Source: an uncultured Actinomycetes bacterium (GTDB lineage Bacteria > Actinomycetota > Thermoleophilia > UBA2241). Taken from it: 64,000 nt of DNA. This document shows, one piece after another, positions 1 through 56,108 of this stretch (positions are counted from its first letter, which is position 1; each line of letters opens with the position of its first letter). The position numbers and the translations under genes were made by a program. Location of the stretch: assembly GCA_963767005.1 (NCBI GenBank), contig CAVYCN010000004.1:352001-416000 (forward strand), read 5' to 3'. The notes beneath the pieces are model-generated. The model worked only from the letters and a program-made list of their open reading frames with translations, searched no databases and had not been told where the DNA came from.

Positions 1-100
1 CGGTCGCCACCGGCCCCTCGCGCGGCCCCAGCACCGTGTTCACGTGGGCGGCGTCGACGCCCTCGCCCACGAACGCCTCACCGATCAGCATCTCGTCCAT
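1..100 (-). CDS. fae: Formaldehyde-activating enzyme (Fae) family protein, 5' part only (runs off window edge)
   Basis: Minus strand AAGGAG RBS, then ATG at 100: MDEMLIGEAFVGEGVDAAHVNTVLGPREGPVAT, matching the Fae N-terminal pattern (IGEAxVGEGxxxAHxxxxxGPRxGPV). Not in the ORF track. Confidence 0.8.
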   Translation of the reverse strand, partial: MDEMLIGEAFVGEGVDAAHVNTVLGPREGPVAT

Positions 101-262
101 GCCTGCGCTCTCCTTCGCGACGACGGCGCGCCGGCACTGCGCCGGCGCAGTCCCACTCGTCGCCGCTCGGGGCCCGCACCAAACCGTGGAGGCCCGCTTG
201 ACCCGACGATGAGGCCACCGGCCGATGTGGAGAGTTCGGAGCGCCACGATAGGCCTGTGCGG

Positions 263-305
263 TAGAATATTCGTCGGTCGTCTTGACGGGCAGAACTTCT
301 TGCTG
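263..305. promoter_or_regulatory. Two candidate Lrp-type binding sites in the divergent fae/lrp promoter region
   Basis: TAGAATATTCGTCGG (263-277) and CAGAACTTCTTGCTG (291-305) each match 12/15 of the E. coli Lrp consensus YAGHAWATTWTDCTR. They are AT-rich islands in GC-rich DNA, with TTGACG between them. Confidence 0.4.
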
Positions 306-345
306 GAACATTGAGGTCGGCCTGCATCTGAGTTGAGGAGGAGGC

Positions 346-810
346 GTGGACCAGCTCGACCGCGAGATCCTCGTCGCGCTGCAGCACGAGGGGCGCAAGT
401 CCAATCTGGCGCTCGCGCGCGAGCTCGACCTGTCGCCGTCGGCCATGCTGGGGCGCGTGCGCCGTCTCGAGCAGTCGGGCGCGATCCGCGGCTACCGCGC
501 CGAGGTCGACCCCGCCGCCCTCGGCATCAGCGTGCAGGCGCTCACCGTGGTCAAGCTGCGCGAGCACAGCGAGCAGGCCATCCGCCAGTTCGAAGCCGCG
601 GTCAAGGACGTCGTCGGGGTGCGCGCCTGCTACCACGTCACCGGGCAGTTCGACATGGTGATGGTGCTCGCCCTCCGCGACCTCGATCATCTCGCTCAGA
701 TGATCCGGGTCGACCTGGCCCGCATCCCGGGCGTCATGCAGCTCGAGACCATGCTCATCATGGCGGAATCCGTGGCCGACCAGGGCTGGCCGGTCTTCAG
801 CGAGGAATGA
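346..810 (+). CDS. Lrp/AsnC family transcriptional regulator
   Basis: MDQLDREIL..LQHEGRKSN..LARELDLSPS...RVRRLEQSGAIRGYRA HTH, C-terminal CYHVTGQFD; GAGGAGG RBS. Confidence 0.95.
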   Translation: MDQLDREILVALQHEGRKSNLALARELDLSPSAMLGRVRRLEQSGAIRGYRAEVDPAALGISVQALTVVKLREHSEQAIRQFEAAVKDVVGVRACYHVTGQFDMVMVLALRDLDHLAQMIRVDLARIPGVMQLETMLIMAESVADQGWPVFSEE

Positions 811-856
811 GACGAGCCGGCGCCTTCGGCGCCGGCTCGGCGCGAAGGAGGTACCG

Positions 857-1708
857 ATGCCGAAGAAGGGCGTCCTCGAGCTCACCGCGATGAAGCGTGC
901 CGGCCAGAAGATCACCTGGCTGACCGCCTACGACTACCCCACAGCGTCGTTCGAGCAGGCCGCCGGCGTCGACATGATCCTGGTCGGCGACTCGCTCGGC
1001 ATGTGCGTGTACGGCTACCCGGGCACCGTGCCTGTCACCATGGACCAGTGCATCGTGCACTCAGAAGCCGTGCGCCGTGCCGCGCCCGACTGCTTCGTGG
1101 TCGGCGACATGCCGTTCATGAGCTATCAGGCGTCCGACGAAGACGCCGTGCGCAACGCCGGCCGCTTCTTGAAAGAGGCCGCCGTCGATGCCATCAAGCT
1201 CGAGGGCGGTGTGCGCATCGTCTCGCGCGTGCGGGCGATCCTCGACGCCGGCATCGTGGTCTGCGGCCACATCGGCCTGACGCCGCAGAGCTCTGGTCAG
1301 CTCGGCGGGCACAAGGCGCAGGGTCGCACGCTCGAGTCGGCCAAGCTCGTGGTCGACGACGCCCGCGCGCTCGCCGAGGCCGGCGTGCAGCTGCTGCTGC
1401 TCGAGGCCGTGCCGCCCGAGGTCGCGGCCTTCATCACCGCCGAGCTGACGATCCCGGTGCTCGGCATCGGCGCCGGTGAGGCGGTCGACGGCCAGCTCCT
1501 CATCGTGAGCGACGTGCTCGGCACCTTCCAGGCCTTCACGCCGAAGTTCGTGAAGAAGTACGCGGATCTCGCCGGCGTGGCGACGGCCGCCCTCACGGAG
1601 TACGTGACCGACGTGCGCGCCGGGCGCTTCCCCGAGGAGCAGCACTGCTACCGCATGCTCGAGGGCGAGCACGACCGCTTCCTGGAGTTCACGCGGCAGA
1701 AGGTCTGA
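857..1708 (+). CDS. panB: 3-methyl-2-oxobutanoate hydroxymethyltransferase (PanB family)
   Basis: LTAYD, ILVGDSLGM, GDMPFMSY, KLEGG, GHIGLTPQ, IGIGAG-like and DGQ motifs; AAGGAGG RBS. Confidence 0.95.
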   Translation: MPKKGVLELTAMKRAGQKITWLTAYDYPTASFEQAAGVDMILVGDSLGMCVYGYPGTVPVTMDQCIVHSEAVRRAAPDCFVVGDMPFMSYQASDEDAVRNAGRFLKEAAVDAIKLEGGVRIVSRVRAILDAGIVVCGHIGLTPQSSGQLGGHKAQGRTLESAKLVVDDARALAEAGVQLLLLEAVPPEVAAFITAELTIPVLGIGAGEAVDGQLLIVSDVLGTFQAFTPKFVKKYADLAGVATAALTEYVTDVRAGRFPEEQHCYRMLEGEHDRFLEFTRQKV

Positions 1709-1711
1709 CGC

Positions 1712-2977
1712 TTGAACGCCGCCAACCTTCCCCCCAGCTCCCCCCGGCGCCGATTGGCGGGCGCCCGCGCAGCCGGCGCCCCGGGCGCCGCCCGCGTCGA
1801 CGACCTCGGCACCGAGACGGTGTTCGCGGTCGCGGCCGACTGTGCGGCGCTGGCCGCCACCGGTCGCACCGTCTATCCGTTCCACCTCGGCGACCTCAAC
1901 ATCCCGACCCCCGCCAACATCACCGAGGCGGCCTTCCGCGCGATCGCCGAGGGCAAGACCGGCTACTGCCCGAACGGCGGCATCGCGCCGCTGCGCGAGG
2001 CGATCGCCGCCGACGTCGGCGGCGCACGCGGCATCGCCTACGGCCCCGAGCACGTGAGCGTGCAGCCCGGCGGCAAGCCGGTGATTGGCAAGTTCCTGCT
2101 TACCCTCATGGACCCCGGCGACGAGGTGCTCTACCCGAACCCGGGCTTTCCCATCTACAGCTCGCTGATCGAGTTCTTCGGCGGCCGCGCGGTGCCCTAC
2201 ACCTACGTCGAGGGGCCGGAAGGCTTCGCCCTCGACCTCGAGCAGATCGAGCGCCTGATCACGCCGGCCACGCGGCTGCTCATCCTGAACGACCTGCACA
2301 ACCCCACCGGCGTGCAGTGCGCGCCGCGCGAGCTCGAACGCGTCGCCGACCTCGCCCGGCGCCACGACCTCTTCGTGCTCTCCGACGAGGCCTACTTCGA
2401 CGTACGGTACGCTGCTCCGAGCCGCTCAATCGCCAGCCTGCCCGGCATGCAGGAGCGCACGGTCATCCTCTACACGTTCTCCAAGAAGTACGCGATGACC
2501 GGCTGGCGGCTGGGCGCGGCGATCGGGCCGGCGTGGTTCATCGACGTCTGCACTACGCTCAACACGAACGTCGAGTCGTGCACCAACCATTTCGTGCAGG
2601 CGGCCGGCGTCGAGGCGCTCACCGGCGACCAGAGCGGCGCCCAGGCGATCCTCGCCGAGCTCGTGCGCAGGCGCGACGCGGCCTGCGACGCGCTCAACGC
2701 CTGCCCCGGCATCACCTGCCTGCGACCCGAGACCACGTTCTACCTGTATCCGAACGTGACCAGGGCGATGGCGCTCACCGGCCTGACCGATTACGAGGAC
2801 TTCCGGCGCGCCATCCTGGCCGAGACCGGGGTGTCGATGTGCACGCGCCTGCACTTCGGGCCCGAGCTGCCCGGCGAGACGCAGCGCTACCTGCGCTTCG
2901 CCTACTCGGGTCTCGAGGTGGAGCGCATCGAGGAGGGCCTCGCGGCGCTGCGCACGTTCCTCGAACAGCGCGCGTGA
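1712..2977 (+). CDS. Class I/II PLP-dependent aminotransferase (AspC-like)
   Basis: HNPTG, LSDEAY and FSKKYAMTGWRLG motifs; start codon uncertain. Confidence 0.9.
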   Translation: MNAANLPPSSPRRRLAGARAAGAPGAARVDDLGTETVFAVAADCAALAATGRTVYPFHLGDLNIPTPANITEAAFRAIAEGKTGYCPNGGIAPLREAIAADVGGARGIAYGPEHVSVQPGGKPVIGKFLLTLMDPGDEVLYPNPGFPIYSSLIEFFGGRAVPYTYVEGPEGFALDLEQIERLITPATRLLILNDLHNPTGVQCAPRELERVADLARRHDLFVLSDEAYFDVRYAAPSRSIASLPGMQERTVILYTFSKKYAMTGWRLGAAIGPAWFIDVCTTLNTNVESCTNHFVQAAGVEALTGDQSGAQAILAELVRRRDAACDALNACPGITCLRPETTFYLYPNVTRAMALTGLTDYEDFRRAILAETGVSMCTRLHFGPELPGETQRYLRFAYSGLEVERIEEGLAALRTFLEQRA

Positions 2978-3095
2978 CGCCGCGCTCCCCGACAAGACCA
3001 CGCGTGACGGCGCCCGAACGACGGGCGGTGCTACGCTGCCAGGTGACCGGAACGGTCGTCGACCAGTCCATGACCATGCGGAGGAGACAAGGACG

Positions 3096-4547
3096 ATGAA
3101 AGAGGTTCGTGACCCGGCGATCACCGGTCGACTGACCGTGCTGAGCCAACAGGGCAAGCAGGACATCTACGCCGCCGCCGTGCGCATCGTGAGCGAGATC
3201 GGCATGCGCGTGCCGCACCAGACCTCGCGCGACATGCTGCTCGCCGCGGGTGCGACCGTCGCAGACGGCGACCTCGTGCGTCTCACGCCCGCCATGGTCG
3301 AGCAGGCGCGCGCGACGGCGCCCGCGTCGTTCAGCGTCTACGACCGCAACGGCGAGCCGGCCATGGAAGTCGGCAGGTACCACAGCTACTTCGGCACGGG
3401 CTCCGACCTGATGGAGATCTACGACCTCGAGACCGGTGAGCCGCGCGAGAGCGGTCTAGCCGATGTGGCGCGCGCCGCGCACCTTTGCGACGGCCTGCCG
3501 AACATCGACTTCATCATGTCGTGCGCCTACCCGCACGACGTGCAGCCCGCCTCGCGCGCCTACCTCGAGAGCTTCCGCGCGATGATCACCAGCACCACCA
3601 AGCCGATGGTCATGACGGCCGAGGGCGCCGGCGACCTCGAGGTCATGTGGCGCATCGCCTGCGCGCTGCGCGGCGGCGAGGACGAGCTGCGCGCCAAGCC
3701 GTACTTCATCATGTACGGCGAGCCGGTCAGCCCGCTCAAGCACGCGGTCGAGGTGCTCGACAAGCTCCTCTTCTGCGCCGACAAGGGCATCCCGGCGATC
3801 TACTCGCCGGCGCCGAGCGCCGGGGCGACCGCACCGATCACGCAGGCCGGCCACATCGTGCTGGCCGTCGCCGAGTCCCTCTTCGGCCTCGTCATCCACC
3901 AGCTCCGCGTGCCGGGCGCGCCCTTCATCTTCGGCATGGGCCCGGTCAAGATCGACATGTCGACGCTCCAGGCCCTCTACAACTCGGCCGAGTACTACAC
4001 GACCATCCTCGGCATCTGCGAGATGGCCAAGTGGCTCGACCTGCCCAACTGGGGCTATGCCGGCTCGAGCGATTCGCACGTGGTCGACGCCCAGGCCGGC
4101 ATGGACGCGGCCGAGCTCACCATGCTGTCGATGCAGGCCGGCTCCAACCTGAACCACGACATCGGCTACCTCGCCTTTGGCCTGATCGGCGCCCTCGAGC
4201 TCGTGGTGATCACCGACGAGATCGTGTCGCTCAACCGTCGCACGTTCGAGGGCATCGAGGTGAGCCCCGAGACGCTCGGCTACGACGTCATCGCCAAGGT
4301 CGGCCCGGGCGGCAACTTCCTGCGCGAGAAGCACACCGCCAAGTACGTGCGCGGCCAGCAGTGGATGCCGACGATCCTGAACCGCAAGACGCGCGAGAAC
4401 TGGAAGGCCGACGGCGCCCCCGACCTGCGCGAGCGGGCCCGCCGGCGGGCGCTCGACATCCTCGCCGATCACAAGCCCGAGCCCATCCCCGCCGCCCTCA
4501 TGGAGAAGGTCGACGCGCTGACCGACTCCTACCAGCCGGTGGCGTGA
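3096..4547 (+). CDS. MttB-superfamily (trimethylamine methyltransferase-like) corrinoid methyltransferase, non-pyrrolysine (copy 1)
   Basis: SPL, AGATAPITxAG, PGAPFIFG, SDSHVVDAQAG and VGPGGNFL motifs; no in-frame amber codon. Confidence 0.92.
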   Translation: MKEVRDPAITGRLTVLSQQGKQDIYAAAVRIVSEIGMRVPHQTSRDMLLAAGATVADGDLVRLTPAMVEQARATAPASFSVYDRNGEPAMEVGRYHSYFGTGSDLMEIYDLETGEPRESGLADVARAAHLCDGLPNIDFIMSCAYPHDVQPASRAYLESFRAMITSTTKPMVMTAEGAGDLEVMWRIACALRGGEDELRAKPYFIMYGEPVSPLKHAVEVLDKLLFCADKGIPAIYSPAPSAGATAPITQAGHIVLAVAESLFGLVIHQLRVPGAPFIFGMGPVKIDMSTLQALYNSAEYYTTILGICEMAKWLDLPNWGYAGSSDSHVVDAQAGMDAAELTMLSMQAGSNLNHDIGYLAFGLIGALELVVITDEIVSLNRRTFEGIEVSPETLGYDVIAKVGPGGNFLREKHTAKYVRGQQWMPTILNRKTRENWKADGAPDLRERARRRALDILADHKPEPIPAALMEKVDALTDSYQPVA

Positions 4548-4583
4548 CGGGGCGAGGCGACCGCGCGTCGCGCGGGTGACGCG

Positions 4584-5966
4584 GTGATCGACGAGGCGGG
4601 TCTCGAGGCGATCCACGCGGGTGCGCTGCGCCTGCTGTCCGACGTTGGGTGCGCGGTGCTCTCGTCCGAGGCGCTCGCGCTGTTCGCCGCCGCCGGTGCG
4701 GCGGTCGACGGTCGCCGCGTGCGTATCGGCGAGCGGCTCGTGGAGCGCGCGCTCGCGACGGCGCCGGCCGGCTACACCGTAGCCGGCCGGCGCCCCGAGC
4801 TCGACCGCGCTGTCGGCGCCGGCGCCGCGCCGGTGCTGTGCTCGGCTTCGGGCCCGGCCTTCGTGCTCGAGCGCGGTGAGCGGCGTCACGGCACGCTGGC
4901 CGACATGCGTGAGGCCGTGGCGCTGTTCCACCAGTCGGCCAACCTCGACGTCTACGGCATCGCCATCACGCCGCTCGACGTGCCCGAGGAGCGCCGGCCG
5001 CAGGTGGTCGGCCACGCGATCGCGACGGGCACCGACAGGCCGTCGCGCGTCGACGTCACGACCGAGCTCGAGCTGCAGGTCGCCATCGACGTCGCCGAGA
5101 TCGTCCACGGCGCCGACTGGCACTTGCGTCCGCGCCTGTGGATCGTGATCAACTCGACCTCACCGCTGCAGCTCTCGGCCGAGGCCTGCCGGGCCGTGCT
5201 GCGCCTCGCCCGCCTGGGCCAGCCCGTCTGCCTGACCGCCTGCGCGATGGCCGGCACCACGGCGCCGGTCACGCCGGCCGGCCTGCTCGCCGTGCAGCAC
5301 GCCGAGCTGCTCGCCGGCCTCGTGCTCACCCAGCTCGCGGCTCCGGGCGCTCCGTTCCTGTACGGCGGCACGTCGTCGGTGTCGTCCATGCACAGCGGCG
5401 CGCTGCTCATGGGCGCGCCCGAGTTCTGGCCGCTCGTCGAGGCCACGGTCGCGTTGGGCCACCGGCTCGGGCTGCCGGTGCGGGCCGGCGGCGCGCTCAC
5501 CGACTCCCACCTGCCCGACGCCCAGGCCGGCATCGAGTCGGCCCTCGCCCTCGACGCGGCCCTGCGCGCCGGCGTCGACTTCGTGCTGCACGCCGCGGGC
5601 ATCCTCTCGTCGTTCAACTCGTTCTCCAAGACGAAGCTCGTGACCGACGACGAGCTGATCGGGCTCCTGCGCCGCGCGCATCGCCCGATCGTGGTCGACG
5701 ACGAGACGCTGGCCCTCGACGTCGTGGCGGCGGCGGGGCCGGGCGGCACGCTGCTCGGCCAGTCCCACACGCGCCGCCACGCCCACGAGGCCGGGCCCGA
5801 CGGCCTCATGAACCGCGATCCTTACGAGACCTGGAGCGCTCAGGGTGGCTCCGACCTCGCCGCGCGCGCCGAGCGGCGCGTGGCCGAGCTGCTCGAATCG
5901 TACCGGCCGCCCGACGACCTCGACCCGGTCACCCGCCGCCAGCTCGACGAGTACTGCCTGGGGTAG
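4584..5966 (+). CDS. MttB-superfamily methyltransferase, non-pyrrolysine (copy 2; MtgB-like RAGGALTD motif)
   Basis: NSTSPL, MAGTTAPVTPAG, PGAPFLYG, RAGGALTDSHLPDAQAGIES, HAAG. Confidence 0.92.
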   Translation: MIDEAGLEAIHAGALRLLSDVGCAVLSSEALALFAAAGAAVDGRRVRIGERLVERALATAPAGYTVAGRRPELDRAVGAGAAPVLCSASGPAFVLERGERRHGTLADMREAVALFHQSANLDVYGIAITPLDVPEERRPQVVGHAIATGTDRPSRVDVTTELELQVAIDVAEIVHGADWHLRPRLWIVINSTSPLQLSAEACRAVLRLARLGQPVCLTACAMAGTTAPVTPAGLLAVQHAELLAGLVLTQLAAPGAPFLYGGTSSVSSMHSGALLMGAPEFWPLVEATVALGHRLGLPVRAGGALTDSHLPDAQAGIESALALDAALRAGVDFVLHAAGILSSFNSFSKTKLVTDDELIGLLRRAHRPIVVDDETLALDVVAAAGPGGTLLGQSHTRRHAHEAGPDGLMNRDPYETWSAQGGSDLAARAERRVAELLESYRPPDDLDPVTRRQLDEYCLG

Positions 5967-6081
5967 ACCGGCTCAGGCGAAGGGCGCGGGCGCCGGCGGC
6001 CAGGGTCGCCGGCGCCCGCGCCGCGACAGACAGACGACTACGAACGCGACGAGAGATCGCTTTGACACGAAGGAGGACCTG

Positions 6082-6732
6082 GTGAGCGACGAACTCTACG
6101 CAAAGATGGCCCAGGCGGTGATCGACGGCGAAGACGACAGCGCCGCCGCCTTGGCCCAGCAGGGCCTCGACGCCGGCCTCAGTGCGGCCGACATCCTGGA
6201 CAAGGGCTTCGTCAAGGGCATCGAGACCGTCGGCGAGCTGTTCGGCAAGGGCGAGTTCTTCCTGCCCGAGCTGGTCCAGGGGGCCGAGGCCATGAAGGCC
6301 GCGGTGAAGGTCCTGCAGCCCGCCCTGGATGCCTCCAAGGAGGGCCGCAAGGCGACCGGCATCGCGGTCGCCGGCACGGTGGCCGGCGACATCCACGAGA
6401 TCGGCAAGACGATCGTCTGCTCCATGCTCAGCGCGGCCGGCTTTGAGGTCACCGACGTGGGCTGCGACGTGGCCCCCGAGACCTTCGTCGCCACCTGCCA
6501 GTCCGTCAAGCCCGACCTGCTGCTGCTCAGTGCCCTGCTGACCACCACCATGCCCAACCAGCAAAAGACGATCGAGGCCCTGAAGGCCGCCGGTCTGCGC
6601 GAGTCGATCAAGGTGATGATCGGCGGCGCCCCGACGACGCGCGCCTGGGCCGATGAGATCGGCGCCGACGGCTACGCCGAGGACGCCATCGAGGCCGTGA
6701 GTGCCGCCAAGGGCCTGCTCGGCGTGGCCTGA
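6082..6732 (+). CDS. Cobalamin-binding corrinoid protein (MttC/MtbC-like)
   Basis: AAGGAGG RBS, then GTG at 6082; B12 cap domain (FFLPEL), GDIHEIGK (DxHxxG), SALLTTT, IGGAP. Confidence 0.95.
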   Translation: MSDELYAKMAQAVIDGEDDSAAALAQQGLDAGLSAADILDKGFVKGIETVGELFGKGEFFLPELVQGAEAMKAAVKVLQPALDASKEGRKATGIAVAGTVAGDIHEIGKTIVCSMLSAAGFEVTDVGCDVAPETFVATCQSVKPDLLLLSALLTTTMPNQQKTIEALKAAGLRESIKVMIGGAPTTRAWADEIGADGYAEDAIEAVSAAKGLLGVA

Positions 6733-6785
6733 GCCGACAGCCGGCTCACCCGCTTTTCGTCGCCCACAGCGACGGACCCGGTGAG

Positions 6786-6829
6786 GGCGGGGGCGGGCGG
6801 CGCGCACGTGCGCGCCGCCCGCCCCCGCC
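6786..6829. terminator. Perfect 44-bp GC-rich palindrome, probable terminator of the panB-mttB-corrinoid unit
   Basis: GGCGGGGGCGGGCGGCGCGCAC|GTGCGCGCCGCCCGCCCCCGCC followed by GTCTTC. Confidence 0.6.
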
Positions 6830-6901
6830 GTCTTCGTGCCGCCGGCCCGGCGTGGCTCGGCGCGAGCATTGTCGGCGGCGGCGGCGTAGACTGCACTGGC
6901 C

Positions 6902-11783: not shown

Positions 11784-11931
11784 CTCGGTCGCTGCCGGGC
11801 GTCGACGTGCGCGTGGTGGAGCGCCGACCGCACGGACAGCGCGACCACGCCTCGAGCGCAGCGGTTTTCGGCTCGGGCGCGCGGTGGTAGTGTAGCCGGC
11901 GGTAGCAACCAGATAAGCAAGCTCGAACGAC

Positions 11932-12105
11932 GGTCGCGCGAGAGCTCGCGGCGCCCCCTTTGCAGGGTGCGCCGGGCGAGCGCCGAAGGGGCAAGGCGAG
12001 CAGGTCCGCCGAATCTCTCAGGCAAGCGGAGCGCAGACCCGACGAGCCCCTGGAGCGCGTGCGGCGCACCGTCGACAGGGCCCGAATGGCGGCCTGTCGG
12101 ACGAC
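11932..12105 (+). ncRNA. Glycine riboswitch (one intact aptamer plus degenerate 3' element)
   Basis: GAGAG...CGCCGAAGGGGCAA...AATCTCTCAGG conserved motifs closed by GGTC-GCGC/GCGC-A-GACC (11932-12039), directly upstream of gcvH. Confidence 0.88.
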
Positions 12106-12201
12106 CCAATCGAGGTGACGGCGACCGGTGCGCGCTGCTTGTGGCTTCGGCCAGGACGACCCCCCGTCCGCCACCTCCCACAGAAAGCAAGGAGGGGGAC
12201 G

Positions 12202-12594
12202 GTGGCCGACGAGAGCTATCCCGATGATCTGAAGTACTTCAAGGAGCACGACTGGGTGCGGGTCGCCGGCGACGAGGCGACCTTCGGCATCACCTGGTGG
12301 GCCCAGGACGCGCTCGGCGACATGGTCTACGCGAGCCTGCCCGACGCGGGCGCCGCGGTCACGGCCGGACAGCCCTACGGCGAGCTCGAGTCGGTCAAGT
12401 CGGTGGCCGAGATCTACGCGCCGGTGAGCGGCCAGGTGGTGGCCGCCAACGACGCCCTCGTGGCCGACCCCGCCCTGGTGAACGCCGATCCCTACGGCGA
12501 CGGCTGGCTCATCCGTGTGCGCCTGTCCGACCCCGCAGAGCTCGACGGACTGATGGACGCGGCCGCCTACAGGGAGCTGCTGGCGACGGCCTGA
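12202..12594 (+). CDS. gcvH: Glycine cleavage system H protein
   Basis: AAGGAGG RBS + GTG; HDW, GIT..AQDALGD, lipoyl motif ESVKSV, NADPYGDGW. Confidence 0.96.
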   Translation: MADESYPDDLKYFKEHDWVRVAGDEATFGITWWAQDALGDMVYASLPDAGAAVTAGQPYGELESVKSVAEIYAPVSGQVVAANDALVADPALVNADPYGDGWLIRVRLSDPAELDGLMDAAAYRELLATA

Positions 12595-12634
12595 CGCCGG
12601 CCGGGCGGCCGCGAGACGAGGGAGGTACGCGCGC

Positions 12635-13994
<1,360 letters not shown>

Positions 13995-14002
<8 letters not shown>

Positions 14003-15521
14003 GATCCCGATCGCCGCCACACCGGCCGCCACCGCCTTGCACACCATCTTCGAGAAGTCGCGGCCCGGGCGCCGCGCCTTCAGTCTGCCCGACGCCGGTC
14101 TGCCGTCGACCCCGGCCGGCGAGCTCCTGCCCGGCGTCGCCCTGCGGGCGCGGCCGGCACGCCTGCCCGAGATCGCCGAGGTCGACCTGGTGCGCCACTT
14201 CGTCGAGCTGTCGTCGCGCGACTTCGGCGTCGACAAGGGCACCTATCCGCTGGGCTCGTGCACCATGAAGTACAACCCGAAGATCAATGAGCGCGTGGCC
14301 GCGCTCGAGGGCCTGCGCGGCCTGCACCCCTACGAGCCCGAGGAGCTCGTGCAGGGCGCGCTCGAGCTCATGGACACGCTCAGCCGCTGGCTCGCCGAGG
14401 TGGCCGGCCTGGCCCGCGCCACGCTGCAGCCGGCGGCCGGCGCCCACGGCGAGCTCACCGGCCTGCTGCTCGTGCGGGCCTACCACGACGACCGCGGCGA
14501 CGGTCGCCGCGTCGTGCTCATCCCCGACACGGCGCACGGCACCAACCCGGCCTCCGTCGTAATGGCCGGCTACCAGCCCGTCACGGTGTCGAGCGACGCG
14601 CGCGGCGGCATCGACCTCGAGGCCGTGCGCTCCCTGGTGACCGAGCGCGGCGCCGAGATCGCCTGCCTCATGCTCACCAACCCCAACACCCTGGGGCTGT
14701 TCGAGGCCGACATCGTCGCGGTCGCGCGCCTCGTCCACGATGCCGGTGGGCTGCTCTACTACGACGGCGCCAACTCGAACGCCGTGCTGGGGCGCTCGCG
14801 GCCCGGCGACATGGGCTTCGATATCGTCCACCTGAACACGCACAAGACGTTCTCGACGCCGCACGGCGGCGGCGGCCCGGGGGCCGGACCGCTCATCGTG
14901 CGCGACATCCTCGAGCCCTACCTGCCGGTGCCGGTGCTGCGCAAGACCGGAGAGCACGCCTTCACGCTCGACTACGACCGGCCCAGGTCGATCGGCAAGG
15001 TGCGTTCCTTCTACGGCAACTTCGGCGTGCTCGTGCGGGCCTACGCCTACATCCGCGCGCTCGGCGCCGAGGGCCTGCGCGAGGTGAGCGAGGCGGCGGT
15101 GCTCAACGCGACCTACGTCCTGGCCGGCATCCGCGACCTGTTCGAGGTGCCCTACGACCGGCCCGTCATGCACGAGTTCGTGGTGTCCGCCGAGCCCCTG
15201 CGCGCCCACGGCGTGCGCGCCCTCGACGTGGCCAAGCGCCTGCTCGATCACGGCGTCCACCCGCCGACCACCTACTTTCCGCTGATCGTCAAAGAGGCGC
15301 TCATGGTCGAGCCGACCGAGACCGAGTCGAAGGCCGACCTCGACGCCTTCGTCGCCGCGGTGCGCGCGGTCGTCGACGAGGCCCGCACCCGGCCCGAGCT
15401 GCTCACGGCGGCGCCGTACACCATGCCGGTCGGGCGTCTCGACGAGGTCGGCGCCGCGCGCAACCCCGTGCTGCGTCAGCGCTTTGCCGACGACCAGCCG
15501 GTGACGGTGACGCCCCAGTGA
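13995..15521 (+). CDS. gcvPB: Glycine dehydrogenase (decarboxylating) subunit 2
   Basis: YPLGSCTMKYNP, AHGTNPAS, HLNTHKTFSTPHGGGGPG, EPTETE. Confidence 0.96.
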
Positions 15522-19992: not shown

Positions 19993-21020
<1,028 letters not shown>

Positions 21021-21024
<4 letters not shown>

Positions 21025-22445
21025 GCCCGGAGCGCGCCAAGGCGGGCACGGCCGGCGACGAGCCGGCCGAGGCCGCCGCGCTGCGCGGCCTCGCCGCCGT
21101 CGACCAGGTCCTGCGTGAGCCGGCCGTCGCCGCGCTCCTCGAGCGCTATCCCCGCGACGTCGTCGTGCGCGCCGTGCGCACCGTGATCGACCGTCTGCGG
21201 CGCGAGATCATCGAGGGCGGGCGAGAGGCCGACGCGGCCGGCCTCACGCCCGCCCATCTCGCGCCCTGGGTCGAGCAGCTCGTCGAGACGGCCGTCTCCC
21301 CGTCGCTGCGCCGCGTGATCAACGCGACCGGCGTTGTCGTCCACACCAACCTCGGGCGCTCCGTGCTGCCGGCCGAGGCGCTCGCCGCGGTCGTCACCGC
21401 CGCCGGCTCGTACACCGACCTCGAGATCGACCTCGCCGGCGGCGAGCGGGCCACCCGGCAGCGCCACGTGCGCGACGTGCTGTGCGCCCTCACGGGCGCC
21501 GCCGACGCGCTCGTCGTCAACAACAACGCCGCGGCGGTGCTGCTCGCCCTGGCGGCGACTTGCCGCGACGGCGAGGTGATCGTGTCGCGTGGCGAGCTCG
21601 TCGAGATCGGCGACGGGTTTCGCATCCCCGACATCCTCGCCGAGAGCGGCGCCCGCCTGGTCGAGGTGGGCACCACCAACCGCACCTACCTGCGCGACGT
21701 CGAGCGTGCCTGGACCGAGCGCACGCGCGCCGTGCTGCGCGTGCACACGAGCAACTACCGCATCGTGGGCTTCACCACGCAACCGGCGCTCGACGAGCTC
21801 GTGGGCTTCGCCCACGAGCGCGACGCGCTGGTGATCGACGATCTGGGCAGCGGCGCCCTGGCCGACCTGCCGCTGCTCGCCGAGGAGCCGGCGGCGCGCG
21901 AGTCGCTGCGCCTCGGCGTCGATCTCGTCACGTTCAGCGGCGACAAGCTGCTCGGCGGGCCGCAGGCCGGCATCGTGCTCGGCACGGCCGCCGCCGTCGA
22001 GCGTCTGCGCACCCACCCCCTGGCGCGCGCCGTGCGCATCGACAAGCTCAATCTGGCCGCGCTCGACGCGCTGCTGCGTCTCTACCTCGACCCCGCGGCC
22101 GCCGTCGAGCGCGTGCCGACGCTCGCCCTCCTCGTCCAGGCCCGCGCCGCGCTCGTGGCGCGCGCCGAGCGGCTGCGTGCCGCGCTCGGCGACGGCGAGG
22201 TCGTCGACGCCGTGGGGCGCGCCGGCGGCGGTGCGCTGCCGCTGGCCGAGGTCGCGAGCGCGGCCGTCGCCCTGGCCCCGGCACGGCTCGCTGTCGGTGA
22301 GCTGGCCGCCCGCCTGCGGCGCGGGCGCCCGGCGGTGCTCGGCTACGTCCACGACGGCCGGGTCCTGCTCGACGTGCTCGCCGTGCGCGACGACGAGGTC
22401 GACGCGCTCGCCGCGGCCGTGGGCGCCGCCCTGACCGCGGGGTAG
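21021..22445 (+). CDS. selA: L-seryl-tRNA(Sec) selenium transferase
   Basis: VINATGVVVHTNLGR, VNNNAAA, SRGELVEIG, EVGTTN, DLGSG, FSGDKLLGGPQAG. Confidence 0.97.
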
Positions 22446-27606: not shown

Positions 27607-29016
27607 ATGGCCGAGAGACCGTTCATCCACCCGTACATCCCCAACGCTGTGCCGGCCACCAAAGCGGCCATGTTGCGGGAGATCGGGCTCGACGGCGTCG
27701 AGGAGATCTACGCCGAGATCCCCGACCGCCTGCGCTTTCGGGGGCGGCTCGACATCCCCGAGCCGATCCTCGCCGAGCGCGACCTGCGGCGGCACGTCAA
27801 GGGCCTGCTCGACCGCAACACGAGCTGTGAGGACAACCTCAACTTCTGCGGCGCCGGCTGCTGGCAGCACTACGTGCCGGCCGTCGTCGACGAGGTCGTG
27901 AACAGGGCCGAGTTCCTGTCGGCGTACTGCGGCGGCAGCTACTCCGACCTGGGCAAATACCAGGCGCGCTTCGAGTTCAACAGCCAGCTCGGTGAGCTGC
28001 TCGACCTGGACGGCGTCGCCAACCCGATCTACGACTGGGGCGACGTCGCCGGGCGCAGCTTCCGCATGGCCAGGCGCATCACGGGCCGCCGCCGGGTGCT
28101 CGTGCCGCAGGCGATGAGCCCCATGCGCCTGGCCGAGGCGCGTACGCTCTGTCAGCCCGAGGTGATGCCCACCCACGTCGCGATCGAGCAGGTCGCCTAC
28201 GAACCGGCCAGCGGCCGGCTCGACCTCGCCGACATGCGCGCGAAGATGGGCGACGACGTCGCCGCCGTCTATTGGGAGAGCCCCGGTTACCTCGGTACGA
28301 TCGAGGACCAGGGCGCCGAGATCGTGCGCATCGCGCACGAGCAGGGCGCTCTCGCCATCGCCGGCGTCGACCCGATCACGCTGGGCGTGCTCGCGCCGCC
28401 CGGTGCGATCGGCGCCGACATCGCCTGCGGCGACATCCAGTGCCTGGGCGTGCACATGCACGCGGGCGCCGGCTGCTCGGGCTTCATCGCCTTCCGCGAC
28501 GACGACCCGGTGTTCGCGCAGGAGTGCCCGCTCGAGCTCTACACGCTGCTCGAGACCGAGACACCCGGCGAGTGGCAGGTCGCCGAGGCCCTGGCCGAGC
28601 GCACGAGCTACGGCGCGCGCGACCAGGGCAAGGACTGGGTCGGCACCGCCTCGGGCCTGTGGACGATCGCCGCGGCCGTGTACATGACGGTCATGGGTCC
28701 CCAGGGCTTCAAGGAGGTCGGCGAGACCTGCATCGCACGCTCGCACTACGCCGCGAAGCGCCTCGCCGAGCTGCCCGGTGTGACGATCAAGCTCTCGCCC
28801 GCCTTCTTCAAGGAGTTCGTGGTCTGCTTCGACGGCACCGGCAAGACGGTCGCCGAGATCAACCACAGGCTGCTCGACCACGCCGTCTTTGGCGGCAAGG
28901 ACCTCTCGGCCGAGTTCCCCGAGCTCGGGCAGAGCGCCCTGTACTGCGTCACCGAGTATCACAGCGAGGCCGACATCGTGGAGCTCGTGATCGCCCTCAA
29001 GGAGGTGCTGCAATGA
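27607..29016 (+). CDS. Divergent GcvPA-like (glycine decarboxylase alpha-subunit family) protein
   Basis: HPYIPN, NFCGAGCWQHYVPAVVDE, FKEFV, LYCVTE; canonical YTPYQ and REQHIRRE motifs are replaced. Confidence 0.88.
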   Translation: MAERPFIHPYIPNAVPATKAAMLREIGLDGVEEIYAEIPDRLRFRGRLDIPEPILAERDLRRHVKGLLDRNTSCEDNLNFCGAGCWQHYVPAVVDEVVNRAEFLSAYCGGSYSDLGKYQARFEFNSQLGELLDLDGVANPIYDWGDVAGRSFRMARRITGRRRVLVPQAMSPMRLAEARTLCQPEVMPTHVAIEQVAYEPASGRLDLADMRAKMGDDVAAVYWESPGYLGTIEDQGAEIVRIAHEQGALAIAGVDPITLGVLAPPGAIGADIACGDIQCLGVHMHAGAGCSGFIAFRDDDPVFAQECPLELYTLLETETPGEWQVAEALAERTSYGARDQGKDWVGTASGLWTIAAAVYMTVMGPQGFKEVGETCIARSHYAAKRLAELPGVTIKLSPAFFKEFVVCFDGTGKTVAEINHRLLDHAVFGGKDLSAEFPELGQSALYCVTEYHSEADIVELVIALKEVLQ

Positions 29017-30632
29017 GCGACCGCGTGACCGACGACGTCGCCGCCAAGCTCGAGCGCCTGGGCCGCCTGCGCCGCGACGGCGGCGCCCTGCGCGACTACC
29101 ACGCGCCGCGCTGGAACGAGCCCCTCGTCATGGAGCAGAGCGTGCCCGGCGAGCGCGGCGTGCTCGTGCCGCAGCCCGAGGCCGAGGTCAGGGCCGAGGT
29201 CGGCGACCCGCTGCAGTACGTGCCGGCCGCGACGCGCCGCCGGCAGGCGCCCGACCTGCCCGAGATCTCCCAGCACCAGGCCCTGCGTCACTACCTGCGG
29301 CTGTCGCAGATGACGCTCGGCATGGACCTCGGTTCCGACATCTCCGAGGGCACGTGCACGATGAAGTACAGCCCCAGGATGCATGAGGAGCTCGTGCGCT
29401 ACCACAAGCACGCCGAGCTGCACCCCTGGCAGGACGAGGACTCGCTGCAGGGCCTGCTGCAGATCGTGTACGACTGCGGCGAGTACCTGAAGGCGATCTC
29501 GGGCATGGACGCCATCACCCTGCAGCCGGGCGGCGGCTCGCACGCCGTCTACACCAACGCCTGCGTCATGCGCGAGTACTACCGCGAGCGTGGCGAGCTC
29601 GACCAGCGCACCGAGATGATCACCACGATCTTCTCGCACCCGTGCGACGCGGCGACACCCTCGGTGGCTGGCTTCAAGGTCATCACCGTCATGCCCGACG
29701 AGAACGGCTACCCCGACCTCGAGGCCTTCAAGGCGGCCGTGTCCGAGCGCACGGTCGGCTGCATGATCACGAACCCCGAGGACACCGGCATCTACAACCC
29801 GCAGATCGACAAGTACGTCGAGGTGCTGCACGGGGCCGGCGCCCTGGCCTTCACCGACCAGGCCAACGCCAACGGCATCCTGGGCTTTGCCCGCGCCCGC
29901 GACGCCGGCTTCGACGCCTGTCATTTCAACCTGCACAAGACCTTCTCGAGCCCCCACGGCTGCGAGGGTCCGGCGACCGGCGCCTACATGGTGACCGACG
30001 AGCTCGCCAAGTACCTGCCCGTGCCGGTGGTCACCAGGGTCGGCGAGCGCTACCACCTCGACTACGACCGGCCGCAGTCGATCGGCCGGGTGCGCGGCTT
30101 CCTGGGCAACTGGATGGGCGTGCTGCGCGCCTACGCCTGGATCCGCAGCATGGGCCCCGACGGCCTGCGCGAGGTGGCCGAGATCAGTGTGCTCAACAAC
30201 AACTACCTCGACCGCCTGCTCATGGGCGTGCGCGGCGTGAGCCGTCCGTACGCCGAGGGCCATCGCCGGCTCGACCAGGTGCGCTACAGCCTCGAGACGC
30301 TCAAAGAGGAGACGGGCGTCGGCACCGAGGAGGTGCGCGACCGCATGGTCGACTTCGGCATCCAGAGCTACTGGATGAGCCACCACCCCTGGGTGGTGGC
30401 GGAGCCCTTCACGCCGGAGCCCTGCGAGACCTATTCGAAGGCCGACCTCGACGAGTGGGCCGCCGTCATCAAGAAGGCGAGTGACGAGGCCTACGCCGAC
30501 GCCGGCACGGTCAAGTCGGCGCCCCACGCCTCGAGCTCGGGACGCATGAAGGGGCTCGAGGCCCTCGAGGACCCCGGGCGCTGGGCCCTGACCTGGCGGG
30601 CGTATCGCCGCAAGAACGGCCTGGCAGGGTAA
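29013..30632 (+). CDS. Divergent GcvPB-like (glycine decarboxylase beta-subunit family) PLP protein
   Basis: GTCTMKYSP, HP.Q, MITNP, HFNLHKTFSSPHG (PLP Lys), NNNYL, EPCET; ATGA overlap with the upstream gene. Confidence 0.9.
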   Translation: MSDRVTDDVAAKLERLGRLRRDGGALRDYHAPRWNEPLVMEQSVPGERGVLVPQPEAEVRAEVGDPLQYVPAATRRRQAPDLPEISQHQALRHYLRLSQMTLGMDLGSDISEGTCTMKYSPRMHEELVRYHKHAELHPWQDEDSLQGLLQIVYDCGEYLKAISGMDAITLQPGGGSHAVYTNACVMREYYRERGELDQRTEMITTIFSHPCDAATPSVAGFKVITVMPDENGYPDLEAFKAAVSERTVGCMITNPEDTGIYNPQIDKYVEVLHGAGALAFTDQANANGILGFARARDAGFDACHFNLHKTFSSPHGCEGPATGAYMVTDELAKYLPVPVVTRVGERYHLDYDRPQSIGRVRGFLGNWMGVLRAYAWIRSMGPDGLREVAEISVLNNNYLDRLLMGVRGVSRPYAEGHRRLDQVRYSLETLKEETGVGTEEVRDRMVDFGIQSYWMSHHPWVVAEPFTPEPCETYSKADLDEWAAVIKKASDEAYADAGTVKSAPHASSSGRMKGLEALEDPGRWALTWRAYRRKNGLAG

Positions 30633-37247: not shown

Positions 37248-37345
37248 GGAGCGGCTCCCGGTCCGGTGACCGGCGCGGTCTTCAAAACCGTCTGCGGGGC
37301 GGTGCTCCCGTCCCGGGTGGGTTCGACCCCCATGCCGCTCCGCCA
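37248..37345 (+). tRNA. selC: tRNA-Sec (TCA)
   Basis: 8-bp acceptor GGAGCGGC/GCCGCTCC, 6-bp D-stem CCGGTC-CGGT-GACCGG, anticodon loop CTTCAAA, long variable arm, GGTTCGACCC, G-CCA end; 98 nt. Confidence 0.96.
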
Positions 37346-39367: not shown

Positions 39368-39717
39368 CCATCCGAATCGCGTGTGCGCCGCCGGCGCGAC
39401 GGCACGGCCGCCGCGCCGCGGTGGTAGGCTGTCGCCCGTGGACGGCGAGGTTCGCACAGGCATGATCGAGCGAGGGTGGCACGTGGCGCCGCGCTCGCGC
39501 CGCCGCGTCCCGACCGATCTCCTTTGGCCGCGCTGCCGTTCGGCGCGGATCTGGACGATCGAGGCGCGCGCGCCCGGCTGCCAGTGCTGGACGCTCGAGC
39601 CGCTCGTGCGTCTCTAGAACGTCGTACGAGCGCCGCGTTCGACGCGGCGCCACTCGGCCGGCGAACTGCGCTCGCCGGTCCCCCGTCCCGAACTTCCCGC
39701 AAGCGATGGAGCGACCC

Positions 39718-41169
39718 ATGACCGAGAGTGAACCACGCGGCCTGCGGCTGCAGGTCGGCTTCCTCACCGACGACGACAAGCGGGCCATCTACGAGGCAGC
39801 CCTCGAGATCTGCGCCACCGTCGGCATGCGCGTGCACCAGACCGCGGCCCTGGAGTCGCTGCGCGCCGCCGGCGCCGATGTCGAAGGCGCCGATCTCGTG
39901 CGCCTGCCCGCCCGCCTCGTCGAGCGCGCCCGCTCGACCGCGCCCGCCATGGTGCCCGTCTACGGCCGCGACGGCGACGAGGCCCTGCGGCTCGGCGGCC
40001 GCCGCAGCTACTTCGGCACCGGCTCGGACCTCATGAACCTGTACGATCTCGAGACCGGCGAGCGGCGCTCAGCGACCCTCGCCGACGTGGGCACCGCCGC
40101 TCGTCTGTGCGACGCTCTGCCGGCCATCGACTTCGTCATGTCGTGCGCCTACGCCCACGACCTGGCCGACCCGCATCTGGCCTACGTGCACGAGTTCCGG
40201 GCGATGCTCGCCAACACGGTCAAGCCGCTCGTCGTCACCGCCGAGGGCGTCGCCGACCTCGAGGTCATGTGGCGCATGGCCGGCGAGGTGCGCGGCGGCG
40301 CCGAGGCCCTGGCCGAGAAGCCGTACTTCATCATGTACGGGCAGCCCAGCAGCCCCCTCGAGCACCCCCGTGACAGCCTCGACAAACTGCTGTTCTGCGC
40401 CGACAAGGCCATCCCGGCGATCTACTCGCCGGCGCCGCTCGCCGGCGCGACCGCGCCGATCACGGTCGCCGGGCACCTCGCCCAGGGCGTGGCCGAGTCG
40501 CTCTTCGGTCTCGTCATCCATCAGCTGCGCCGGCCCGGCGCGCCGTTCCTGTTCGGCATCGGTCCGGCGGTCCTCGACATGGCGACGGCGCAGTCCTCGT
40601 ACAACGCACCTGAGTACCTCATGTCATACCTCGGCGCCGTCGAGATGGCGCGGTTCCTCGACCTGCCCAACTGGGGCTACGGCGGCACGACCGACGCCCA
40701 GCTGGTCGACGCGCAGGCCGGCCTCGAGGCCGGCGAGCTCACCCTGCTCGCCATGATGGCCGGCTCCAACTTGAACCACGACGTCGGTTACCTCGACTAC
40801 GGCATGACCGGCGCGCTCGAGCTCGTCGTCATCGTCGACGAGTTCGTCGCCATGAACCGGCGGCTGCTCGCCGGTGTGCCGGTCGACCGCGACGCGCTCG
40901 GTGTCGAGGTGATCGCCGCGACCGGCCCGGGCGGCGACTTTCTGTCGACGAAGCACACCGCCCGTCACCTGCGCAGCGCGCAGTGGCGGCCGACCATCAT
41001 CAACCGCAAGGGGTACGAGCGCTGGGCCGAGGACGGCGGCCTCGACCTGCGCGAGCAGGCCCGGCGCAAGGCCGTACGGCTGCTCGCCACGCACACGCCG
41101 CCGGCGCTGCCAGCCGACGTCGAGGCCCGCATCGCGGCCCTCGTCGAGGGGTTCAGGCCGGGCGCGTAG
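39718..41169 (+). CDS. MttB-superfamily methyltransferase, non-pyrrolysine (copy 3; close paralog of copy 1)
   Basis: YFGTGSD, AGATAPIT, PGAPFLFG, GGTTDAQLVDAQAG, GPGGDFL. Confidence 0.92.
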   Translation: MTESEPRGLRLQVGFLTDDDKRAIYEAALEICATVGMRVHQTAALESLRAAGADVEGADLVRLPARLVERARSTAPAMVPVYGRDGDEALRLGGRRSYFGTGSDLMNLYDLETGERRSATLADVGTAARLCDALPAIDFVMSCAYAHDLADPHLAYVHEFRAMLANTVKPLVVTAEGVADLEVMWRMAGEVRGGAEALAEKPYFIMYGQPSSPLEHPRDSLDKLLFCADKAIPAIYSPAPLAGATAPITVAGHLAQGVAESLFGLVIHQLRRPGAPFLFGIGPAVLDMATAQSSYNAPEYLMSYLGAVEMARFLDLPNWGYGGTTDAQLVDAQAGLEAGELTLLAMMAGSNLNHDVGYLDYGMTGALELVVIVDEFVAMNRRLLAGVPVDRDALGVEVIAATGPGGDFLSTKHTARHLRSAQWRPTIINRKGYERWAEDGGLDLREQARRKAVRLLATHTPPALPADVEARIAALVEGFRPGA

Positions 41170-54692: not shown

Positions 54693-56108
54693 TCACCGGC
54701 CGGGCGGCGCCTGCGCGACGATCTCGTCGAGGCGCCGTCGTGTCGTTGGATCGAGTGTGAACGGCGGCTCGCCGCCGAGCAACTCGGCGGTGCGCGCCGC
54801 GACCCTCTGTTTGAGGGTGGTCGCGCCGTCGGCCCGCCAGCGCTCGTAGGGCGACTGGTCGAGCAGGTCGGTCGTGAGGAAGCGCCGGTAGCGGGAGCGC
54901 GTGTACGGCCGGGCCAGGTGGTTGCCACCGGGGCCGGCCAGCATGATCTCGTCGAGCGCCAGGGCCTCGTCGTCGACGGGCAGCTCCTCGGTCAGGGCGC
55001 GCGCATAGCCGATGAGCTCGTCGCCCAGGACGAGCGCCTCGAACGAGCTCTGCAGGCCCGACTCGAGGTAGCCGACGTCGTGCAGCAGCGTCGCTCCGCA
55101 GAGCTCGCCGAGCACGGTGGCGAGGGCCGACTCGGCGGCCGCCTGCTCGTCGAAGAGCTTGCTGTCTGAGTCGCCCGCGTAGGCCCAGCTCGGCAGGCCG
55201 TACCAGTGGGCGAGGTCGACCGAGGCCTGATTGCCGAGAGCCACCCCCGGCGGCCGGTAGGCGTCGACCATGGTCCGCATGTTGAGCACGCCGACGCCGG
55301 CGCCGTAGAGGAACGGCGCGCCCGGCGCGGCGAGCTGGTGCACGACGAGGCCGGCGAGCACCTCGGCGTTGGCGACCACGATGACGGCCGGGATCGATGC
55401 CGGCGCCGTCGAGCCGGCCGACGGCGCCGGCGCGAGGATCACGGGCAGATCGAGCTCGCCGCAGACGAGCAGCTTGTCGAGGCAGATCTCGTCGAGCTGC
55501 AGGGGCGGCGACGACATGACGAGGCAGCCGAGGCTGCCGGCCCCGTCGCAGGCCGCCGCCATCTCGGCCATCAAGCGCAGCGGCGCGCCGCCGAAGGGGC
55601 TCGAGACGACGATCGGCTTGCGCGTGCCGGCCAGCATCGCGGTGAGCTGGACGAGGTCGATGCGCTCGGGGTCGGCGTCGTCGGGCAGCCCCATCGACAT
55701 GACGAAGTCGACGTTGGTCAGCCGCTCGGCGAGGCGGGCGAAGCGCTCGCAGTCGGTCAGCCGCGCGCGGCGCCGGCCGCCGGCCGGGTCGTCGACGTAC
55801 AGGCAGTCGGGGCCGGTGCCGTACCAGGTGCGGCCGTCCGTCAGCTCGCGGTCGAGGCTGCGGTCGGGCGCGCGGCCCTTCAGCACGAAGCTGCGCGGAG
55901 CGCTCGCCAGGGCCCGGTCGACGAGCTCGCGGGGCAGGCGGGCGCGGGTGTCTCGGACACCCGCGCCCGCCTGCCGCAGCAGCTCGAGCGCGGCGGGGTG
56001 GCGCACCTCGACGCCGGTCTCGGCCAGCACGCGGCAGCTCGCCTCGTGCACCCGGGCGCAGGCGGCCTCGTCCCAGACGCGCACCCTGGCGCGCAGCGGC
56101 GCGGTCAC
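54693..56108 (-). CDS. MttB-superfamily methyltransferase, non-pyrrolysine (copy 4)
   Basis: YGTGPDC, DFVMS, AGSTAP, PGAPFLYG, AGDSDSKLFDEQA, LHDVGYLESG; GTG start overlapping the upstream stop. Confidence 0.9.
   Translation of the reverse strand: MTAPLRARVRVWDEAACARVHEASCRVLAETGVEVRHPAALELLRQAGAGVRDTRARLPRELVDRALASAPRSFVLKGRAPDRSLDRELTDGRTWYGTGPDCLYVDDPAGGRRRARLTDCERFARLAERLTNVDFVMSMGLPDDADPERIDLVQLTAMLAGTRKPIVVSSPFGGAPLRLMAEMAAACDGAGSLGCLVMSSPPLQLDEICLDKLLVCGELDLPVILAPAPSAGSTAPASIPAVIVVANAEVLAGLVVHQLAAPGAPFLYGAGVGVLNMRTMVDAYRPPGVALGNQASVDLAHWYGLPSWAYAGDSDSKLFDEQAAAESALATVLGELCGATLLHDVGYLESGLQSSFEALVLGDELIGYARALTEELPVDDEALALDEIMLAGPGGNHLARPYTRSRYRRFLTTDLLDQSPYERWRADGATTLKQRVAARTAELLGGEPPFTLDPTTRRRLDEIVAQAPPGR

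Follow-up and report, generated by a model that had tools for sequence, protein, structure and literature searches.

What does a panB gene do in a cluster of methyltransferase genes, away from panC? The question is raised by a 64,000-nucleotide stretch of DNA (hereafter the window) from an uncultured soil actinobacterium of the class Thermoleophilia (GenBank assembly GCA_963767005.1, contig CAVYCN010000004.1, positions 352,001 to 416,000). At its left end, a gene for an Lrp-type regulator is followed by panB and by genes for an aminotransferase, two MttB-family methyltransferases (MttB1 and MttB2) and a corrinoid protein, with a divergent fae homologue on the other side, all placed as a first-pass annotation had read them. 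That annotation closed the cluster at position 6732; its genes stand, but the cluster runs on to a conserved gene that it had overlooked, orf422. We report here that the window PanB belongs to a clade of its own, PanB*, and we propose tentatively that the cluster takes apart a methylated amino acid. In what follows, G000 is the genome that holds the window (assembly rated 100% complete; window on contig C4), and other G, C and L numbers denote genomes, contigs and loci.

The window PanB is not of the housekeeping lineage. A scan of about 4/64 of our species collection recovered PanBs of 57 to 88% identity in Desulfobacterota, Bacillota, Synergistota, Spirochaetota, Thermotogota, Armatimonadota and Chloroflexota. 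In a quick tree of 100 rows, from which the partial rows L092 and L115 were left out, 57 rows fall on one side of a branch with a Shimodaira-Hasegawa approximate likelihood ratio test (SH-aLRT) support of 100 and a stem of 0.53; this well-supported side is PanB*, a clade that at least seven phyla of anaerobes share. The tree, a check that the first-pass annotation had suggested, places the window copy among Desulfobacterota, Spirochaetota, Thermotogota and others. Window-type PanBs of Thermoleophilia nest among those of other phyla, apart from the panC-linked copies of their own class, and the simplest reading is that PanB* was acquired by horizontal transfer.

The clade is also marked by its pocket. 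The window PanB is approximately 42% identical to E. coli PanB (PDB 1M3U, EC 2.1.2.11) and retains all catalytic and metal residues, D45, S46, D84, K112, H136 and E181 (list taken in part from PMC13488298). It departs from the E. coli enzyme by V179L, I212L, V214I and H216S. Clade-wide, V179L and V214I occur throughout, I212L mostly, and residue 216 is Ser or Gly: L179 with I214 is found in 57/57 clade rows, as against V214 in 42 of the 43 other rows. Among 140 diverse PanB representatives, 108 have V214 and 21 have I214. The motif 209-217 borders the PanB pocket (PMC13488298), and I202, I212 and V214 of the E. coli enzyme, which act sterically in its active site (PMC7610986), have been changed by engineers to shift the substrate range (PMC7610986, PMC7611260). 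As V214G helps PanB to take large aldehydes, V214 may lie on the aldehyde side and not at the methyl site. Judged from these substitutions, the PanB* pocket would favour a smaller 2-oxo acid. The window protein thus lacks the marks by which we recognize a housekeeping PanB, namely, grouping with its own lineage, proximity to pan genes, and V179, I or V212, V214 and H216 in the pocket.

Gene neighbourhoods set PanB* apart as well. Genes were counted within a radius of 2 kb at loci outside Thermoleophilia, for 53 I214 genes and 66 other PanBs, after removal of 15 duplicate loci; some loci of the latter group had flanks of only 1.5 kb. No PanB* gene had panC in reach, compared with 22/66 ordinary genes, and any pan gene was found near 1/53 versus 51/66. 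Enzymes of the aminotransferase or amino acid dehydrogenase type (16/53), MttBs (7/53) and a barrel protein described below (17/53) were found near PanB*, each against 0/66, in categories picked from the clade's own neighbours among kin that are not independent, which makes the pan-gene contrast the fair one. Importers are common beside PanB*. At least two full-length PanBs are present in 29 of the other 46 carrier genomes, and 22 have an ordinary V214 copy, often adjoining panC or panE; panC was detected in only 24 of the 46, most of which are incomplete metagenome-assembled genomes. On these sequence grounds, PanB* is a paralogue and not an ordinary PanB. Unlike the E. coli enzyme, whose catalytic and metal residues it shares, it stands outside pan operons, often as the second to sixth copy and near importers, deaminating enzymes, MttBs and an unnamed barrel.

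One carrier, "Candidatus Formimonas warabiya" (G062; loci L093 and L182 to L188), has eight PanBs, six of them of the I214 type. Three of these six lie beside MttBs (binomial p ~0.009 against a background of 8%), in a genome with 82 mttB genes (PMC6778437). The main text of two Formimonas papers does not mention panB. The Formimonas PanBs sit in differing catabolic clusters, with an MttB, an opine dehydrogenase, a glycyl radical enzyme or a member of the proline-racemase family.

Within the window's family, the order lrp-panB-aminotransferase-mttB is conserved. In 10 relatives with the family-type panB, lrp precedes it in all 10, the aminotransferase gene follows in 8 and both mttBs in 6, two further contigs ending early; three genera have panB, the aminotransferase gene and mttB1 in this order. 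The first-pass annotation had asked whether this neighbourhood, fae included, recurs elsewhere. It does so in the family and, as panB with an aminotransferase gene and two types of mttB, at Formimonas locus L182, but fae does not follow.

We suggest that lrp-panB*-aminotransferase-mttB1-mttB2-corrinoid-orf422 is a coupled catabolic module for demethylation, transamination and reverse hydroxymethyl transfer to tetrahydrofolate (THF), a reading to which we give slightly less than an even chance. In this scheme, an N-methylated alpha-amino acid would give up its methyl groups to the corrinoid protein through the action of both MttBs, the aminotransferase would turn the freed amino acid into a 4-hydroxy-2-oxo acid, and PanB*, running in reverse, would pass the hydroxymethyl group to THF. 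The one-carbon (C1) units would enter the FolD, Fhs and CO dehydrogenase machinery of the genome, which carries fhs, folD, cooS, ilvD and a RACo activator gene. The sequences establish the gene identities, the separate clade and its pocket changes, the exclusion from pan operons and the recurring partners; the direction, the coupling and the substrate are our inference. The window cluster contains no corrinoid:THF methyltransferase gene and no transporter gene.

Most MttB-family enzymes have, to our knowledge, no known substrate, and the systems we know of stop once the methyl groups are removed. MttB1 and MttB2 have no in-frame stop codon and carry Ser and Leu in place of pyrrolysine. They share the non-pyrrolysine MttB fold and a cognate corrinoid protein with MtgB/MtgC of Desulfitobacterium hafniense (PDB 2QNE, 9YCE; related MtpB, MtcB and MtyB); in contrast, the window pair is linked to enzymes that would break the carbon skeleton further. 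At the MtgB residues Y97, R312, H348 and F356, whose roles are described in PMC13080624, MttB1 has S/W/H/G and MttB2 has S/R/H/F, so that neither keeps the full glycine betaine motif; as Y97 is missing in both, glycine betaine is disfavoured as a substrate. MttB2 is the only one of the 36 MttBs of G000 to keep R312, H348 and F356, the carboxylate site of MtgB, and its residues would suit an alpha-amino acid that is N-methylated and bears a side chain.

Several observations weigh against the proposed module, beyond the choice of partner categories noted above, and they are best met together with the alternatives that they favour. The first is that PanB* is a horizontally acquired housekeeping replacement that makes ketopantoate, with the aminotransferase, controlled by Lrp, converting valine to 2-oxoisovalerate, and with the MttBs as neighbours or only a C1 source. 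The first-pass annotation would have abandoned its idea had this panB been the only one of the genome and grouped with housekeeping enzymes; it groups elsewhere, but it is the only one in G000, alongside panC and ilvD. panC, likewise single-copy, lies on a different contig, which bears out the reported separation of the two genes, and the second panB looked for beside it is not there. In outgroup families a panB (40 to 56% identical to the window copy) sits beside panC, whereas none is found at the pan locus of the window's family, and the catalytic residues of PanB* are intact. In a larger family sample panB is found in 36/50 genomes, as expected of a replacement housekeeping gene, and 20/20 extra loci are of the PanB* type (the best-scoring ones, at least two of which repeat known loci; a low-scoring G093 match was left unclassified), with lrp in 18 and an aminotransferase gene in 16. 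At L101, L096 and L194, an IlvD above the ilvD cut-off adjoins the clade panB, in one case with PanE, which points to 2-oxoisovalerate; more broadly, neighbours that are true IlvD, PanE or Leu/Val-type dehydrogenases point to this compound as much as to our favoured substrate. Against replacement, 14 of 24 family genomes retain panC with no panB detected, some of them 97 to 100% complete, arguing that panC needs no panB here. In addition, PanB* is beside panC in 0/53 cases, coexists with an ordinary PanB in 22/46 genomes, and is present in six copies in Formimonas. We consider replacement unlikely.

Some observations border on this question. Of 41 related genomes, all have panC and 21 a panB above the cut-off; several f1-family genomes (G012-G024) that are 94 to 100% complete have panC with no panB detected, and families f4 and f6 behave likewise. 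No panD or panE was found in G000 with the queries used, and the gene adjoining panC encodes a Rossmann-fold protein that we take to be of the PanG/DUF2520 type. Directly beside an I214 PanB of L101 lies a divergent one (L101:7121-7951) that has I202T and Asn at 212 and 214; it is placed between ilvD and panE, and no panC was detected in that genome.

A second alternative splits the cluster into two neighbouring units: lrp, panB* and orf422, with or without the aminotransferase gene, would form a catabolic core that acts on an unmethylated compound, and mttB1, mttB2 and the corrinoid gene a cassette for an unrelated one. Several points favour such a split and count against coupling. The aminotransferase-MttB cassette is missing at the locus in G011, the closest relative (panB 96% identical), and in L243 (95%), and it is present in G002 (61% complete) with no panB detected. 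Outside Thermoleophilia, only 7/53 PanB* loci have an MttB nearby, and 22/53 are without any scored partner. G000 has 36 MttB-family sequences of at least 300 residues, so that the chance background is high and proximity of an mttB by itself means little. The identities of the window MttBs to their Formimonas partners, 33 to 42%, are at about the level of paralogues. On the other side stand the panB-aminotransferase-mttB1 order kept across three genera and the lack of MttBs near any of the 66 ordinary PanBs. In Formimonas, moreover, both MttB signatures flank panB*: at L182, panB* and a class I aminotransferase gene share the locus with genes for glycerol kinase, a BCCT (betaine/choline/carnitine) transporter, a methionine-gamma-lyase-like enzyme and two MttBs, one per signature, and the best Formimonas match of MttB1 is the panB*-linked copy there (42%, versus 41% for the next). 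Two separate units seem to us quite unlikely.

Returning to the coupled module, the single most likely substrate of PanB* is 4-hydroxy-2-oxobutanoate (HOB) from homoserine, which would yield pyruvate and methylene-THF (CH2-THF); cleavage toward THF should be the downhill direction. Many neighbours across the clade are enzymes that could lead to HOB: aspartate-type aminotransferases, a homoserine dehydrogenase beside Orf422 (L224), the methionine-gamma-lyase-like enzyme, ectoine-hydrolase-like proteins (L114, L117), tetronate-kinase-like proteins with LarAH10-family racemases (L110), and dihydroxy-acid dehydratases, as threonate dehydration yields HOB (PMC10079672). Product sinks are found there too, with Fhs/FolD at L102 and pyruvate-dehydrogenase-like E1/E2/E3 at L088 (E1 alpha below the cut-off). 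A PanB of P. putida partly rescued a homoserine auxotroph as an HOB aldolase (10.1101/2025.02.17.638773). More ambitiously, PanB* might be a dedicated HOB:THF hydroxymethyltransferase, a hub that funnels homoserine-skeleton compounds to pyruvate and CH2-THF anaerobically, with homoserine betaine (from diacylglyceryltrimethylhomoserine [DGTS] lipids), homoserine, methionine or diaminobutyrate derivatives and tetronates as inputs; this is possible but, on balance, doubtful. The homoserine betaine version, to which we grant only a modest chance, would here deliver four C1 units, pyruvate and ammonia-nitrogen by way of the MttB pair and the aminotransferase.

The same neighbours were weighed for two other directions of flow. 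PanB* might degrade the classical product, converting pantoate or ketopantoate to 2-oxoisovalerate and CH2-THF, after which the aminotransferase would make valine. Annotation lists the PanB reaction as reversible, and PanE, amidases, an energy-coupling factor (ECF) S-component and 2-oxoacid oxidoreductases lie beside some members. This is improbable, however: the bulkier pocket residues would suit a gem-dimethyl substrate less, the MttB pair is left unexplained, and the LarAH10 family adjoining PanB* at L110 has a member in M. elsdenii that prefers linear 2-hydroxy acids and handles 2,4-dihydroxybutyrate better than branched acids (PMC11770544). Alternatively, PanB* might be assimilatory, condensing MttB-derived C1 units with pyruvate to HOB and on to homoserine in a natural homoserine cycle. 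A PanB can serve as an HOB aldolase in vivo (10.1101/2025.02.17.638773), and homoserine dehydrogenase adjoins Orf422 in L224. From their motifs, we take a gene ~3 kb upstream of the window to be homoserine-kinase-like, and the genes that a 68% identical aminotransferase gene follows on C19 to be tdh/kbl-like. However, transfer from CH2-THF to pyruvate is uphill, and importers and product-oxidizing enzymes flank many members, which makes assimilation very improbable in our view. The synthetic homoserine cycle, with its HOB aldolase and HOB transaminase, has the same chemistry as the favoured substrate hypothesis, but it is engineered, assimilatory and dependent on free formaldehyde, whereas the route suggested for the window would be natural, THF linked and probably catabolic.

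The gene missed by the first-pass annotation, orf422, encodes the most constant partner of PanB* outside the window's family. Orf422 has no Pfam or NCBIfam match and Atlas scores of <0.8, and its homologues fill more than 7,000 protein clusters. Its predicted model is a confident barrel (predicted local distance difference test [pLDDT] score, 89), for which Foldseek returned weak matches to class II aldolase and 3-deoxy-D-arabino-heptulosonate 7-phosphate (DAHP) synthase barrels (template modelling score, ~0.3 to 0.37), so that no function could be assigned from families, Atlas or fold. In a search seeded from Orf422, panB lay within two genes in 31/80 metagenomic loci, and all 30 of these panBs that cover both columns are L179/I214; 26 loci carry Lrp, and aminotransferases or amino acid dehydrogenases often follow. 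Together with the clade loci, this defines a core of Lrp, PanB*, barrel and an enzyme that forms a 2-oxo acid, inside which the aminotransferase-mttB-mttB-corrinoid block sits in the window's genus. Orf422 probably acts in the PanB* route.

A second, distantly related barrel (hhalign 79.7%) replaces Orf422 in 10/50 clade loci. It appears to be U32-like: its Atlas look-alikes carry PF01136 on 17 to 24% of members, and one of 9 members matches PF01136 at E 0.077. Its profile gave only spurious repeat matches against solved structures. This second barrel occupies the place of Orf422, usually with an IclR regulator, in L076, L084, L086, L094, L096, L103, L107, L114, L117 and L118. G000 also has a second Orf422 paralogue (67%) at G000:C3:191279-192529, whose neighbours, from the look of their sequences, are presumably glutamine-synthetase-like, amidohydrolase and cyclase-like genes.

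The distribution of Fae, which the first-pass annotation had drawn into the route, argues against its membership. The window homologue begins at position 100 on the minus strand and scores 152 against TIGR03126 (cut-off, 118), like Fae of the tetrahydromethanopterin (H4MPT) pathway. In contrast to that pathway, G000 gave no match for Mch in a search whose controls were positive in 3 archaea, and the next gene encodes a 3-hydroxyisobutyrate-dehydrogenase-family, NAD(P)-dependent oxidoreductase, so that Fae pairs with a beta-hydroxyacid dehydrogenase; nor is it codistributed with PanB*. None of the other 46 carrier genomes yielded Fae, and among 10 related panB loci fae is divergent in 4 and missing from 6, as it is from a 95%-identical metagenomic locus. 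It is single-copy in G000 and occurs in 5/24 family genomes, including G015, which lacks panB. Given this distribution and the absence of Mch, we rejected Fae as a pathway member; it is probably an inserted neighbour at the level of the genus, outside the module, although it might conceivably capture leaked formaldehyde locally. Lrp travels with PanB* and Orf422 and not with Fae: it also adjoins PanB* in Desulfobacterales and Anaerolineales loci (L077, L196), and fae of G015 has no adjoining lrp. Regulation of the fae pair by Lrp was rejected on these grounds. In L243 and G001, rtcB immediately precedes lrp.

The cluster appears to be a conserved and so far undescribed variant assembled from known enzyme families; the literature searched, which did not include subscription journals, listed no paper on a PanB paralogue with a catabolic role, or on how homoserine betaine is broken down, as judged by titles and abstracts. 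If the proposal is right, a PanB paralogue that frees an additional C1 unit to THF would tie the C1 metabolism of acetogens and sulfate reducers in soils, peat and sediments to methylated amino acids. Many panB annotations would be unsafe as markers of vitamin B5 synthesis, and a dedicated HOB enzyme, if that is what PanB* is, would be misannotated as panB in thousands of genomes. Such an enzyme would be a natural counterpart to the synthetic homoserine cycle and possibly a natural HOB-forming enzyme for synthetic methylotrophy. An unnamed barrel family would in turn be tied to a pathway. Cultured or enriched carriers of PanB* exist, Desulfoluna spongiiphila and "Candidatus Formimonas warabiya."

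The features of the locus are collected in the table.

Features of the panB* cluster, in window coordinates
Feature	Position	Strand	Basis or remark
Fae-family gene, 5' end	1..100	-	continues beyond the window as G000:C4:351597-352100
Lrp/AsnC regulator	346..810	+	adjacent to panB in 10/10 related loci
GC-rich hairpin without U-tail, lrp/panB gap	813..838	+	folding, no shuffle control
PanB*	857..1708	+	TIGR00222 313.1 (cut-off 207.55); NF001452 348.3 (cut-off 272)
Class I pyridoxal phosphate (PLP) aminotransferase	1712..2977	+	PF00155; start uncertain, 1712 to 1820
MttB1, non-pyrrolysine MttB-family methyltransferase	3096..4547	+	PF06253
MttB2, non-pyrrolysine MttB-family methyltransferase	4584..5966	+	PF06253
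Long GC hairpin, mttB2/corrinoid gap	5981..6024	+	folding
Cognate corrinoid protein	6082..6732	+	TIGR02370 223.1 (cut-off 215.3)
Long GC hairpin 3' of corrinoid gene	6781..6832	+	folding; present in the C3 copy too
Orf422, unnamed TIM-barrel protein, 422 aa	6902..8170	+	predicted model

The aminotransferase has the PLP-lysine motif and scores under every specific NCBIfam cut-off shown. A further point against the coupled module is that strong hairpins split lrp from panB and mttB2 from the corrinoid gene, so that the genes may not share one transcript. All 10 folded relatives have a predicted hairpin in the lrp/panB gap, differing in sequence from that of the window, which the terminator scan did not call. 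The promoter and terminator scan of the cluster gave nothing promoter-like and nothing exceeding chance, and the Rfam scan found no RNA family within it.

The corrinoid gene and its downstream hairpin (window 6069-6832) recur as a 764-bp copy, 99.9% identical, at G000:C3:214130-214893. The corrinoid gene is also present in two copies in G002, which suggests gene conversion between loci and not only an assembly artefact. Three more MttB-family genes lie in the window, at 39706-41166 and within 54696-57508; the MttB encoded at 39706 has the W/G signature of MttB1, to which it is 58% identical. Seven other MttB loci of G000 (on C3, C4, C6, C11 and C18) have in-frame stops at the pyrrolysine column. 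Elsewhere in the window, a glycine riboswitch precedes genes that we take from their sequence to be gcvH-, gcvPA- and gcvPB-like (11927-15521), and a second pair, presumably gcvPA/gcvPB-like, occupies 27607-30629. Genes that we assume to be selD/selA-like lie at 20050-22442, and a tRNA-Sec is encoded at 37248-37341.

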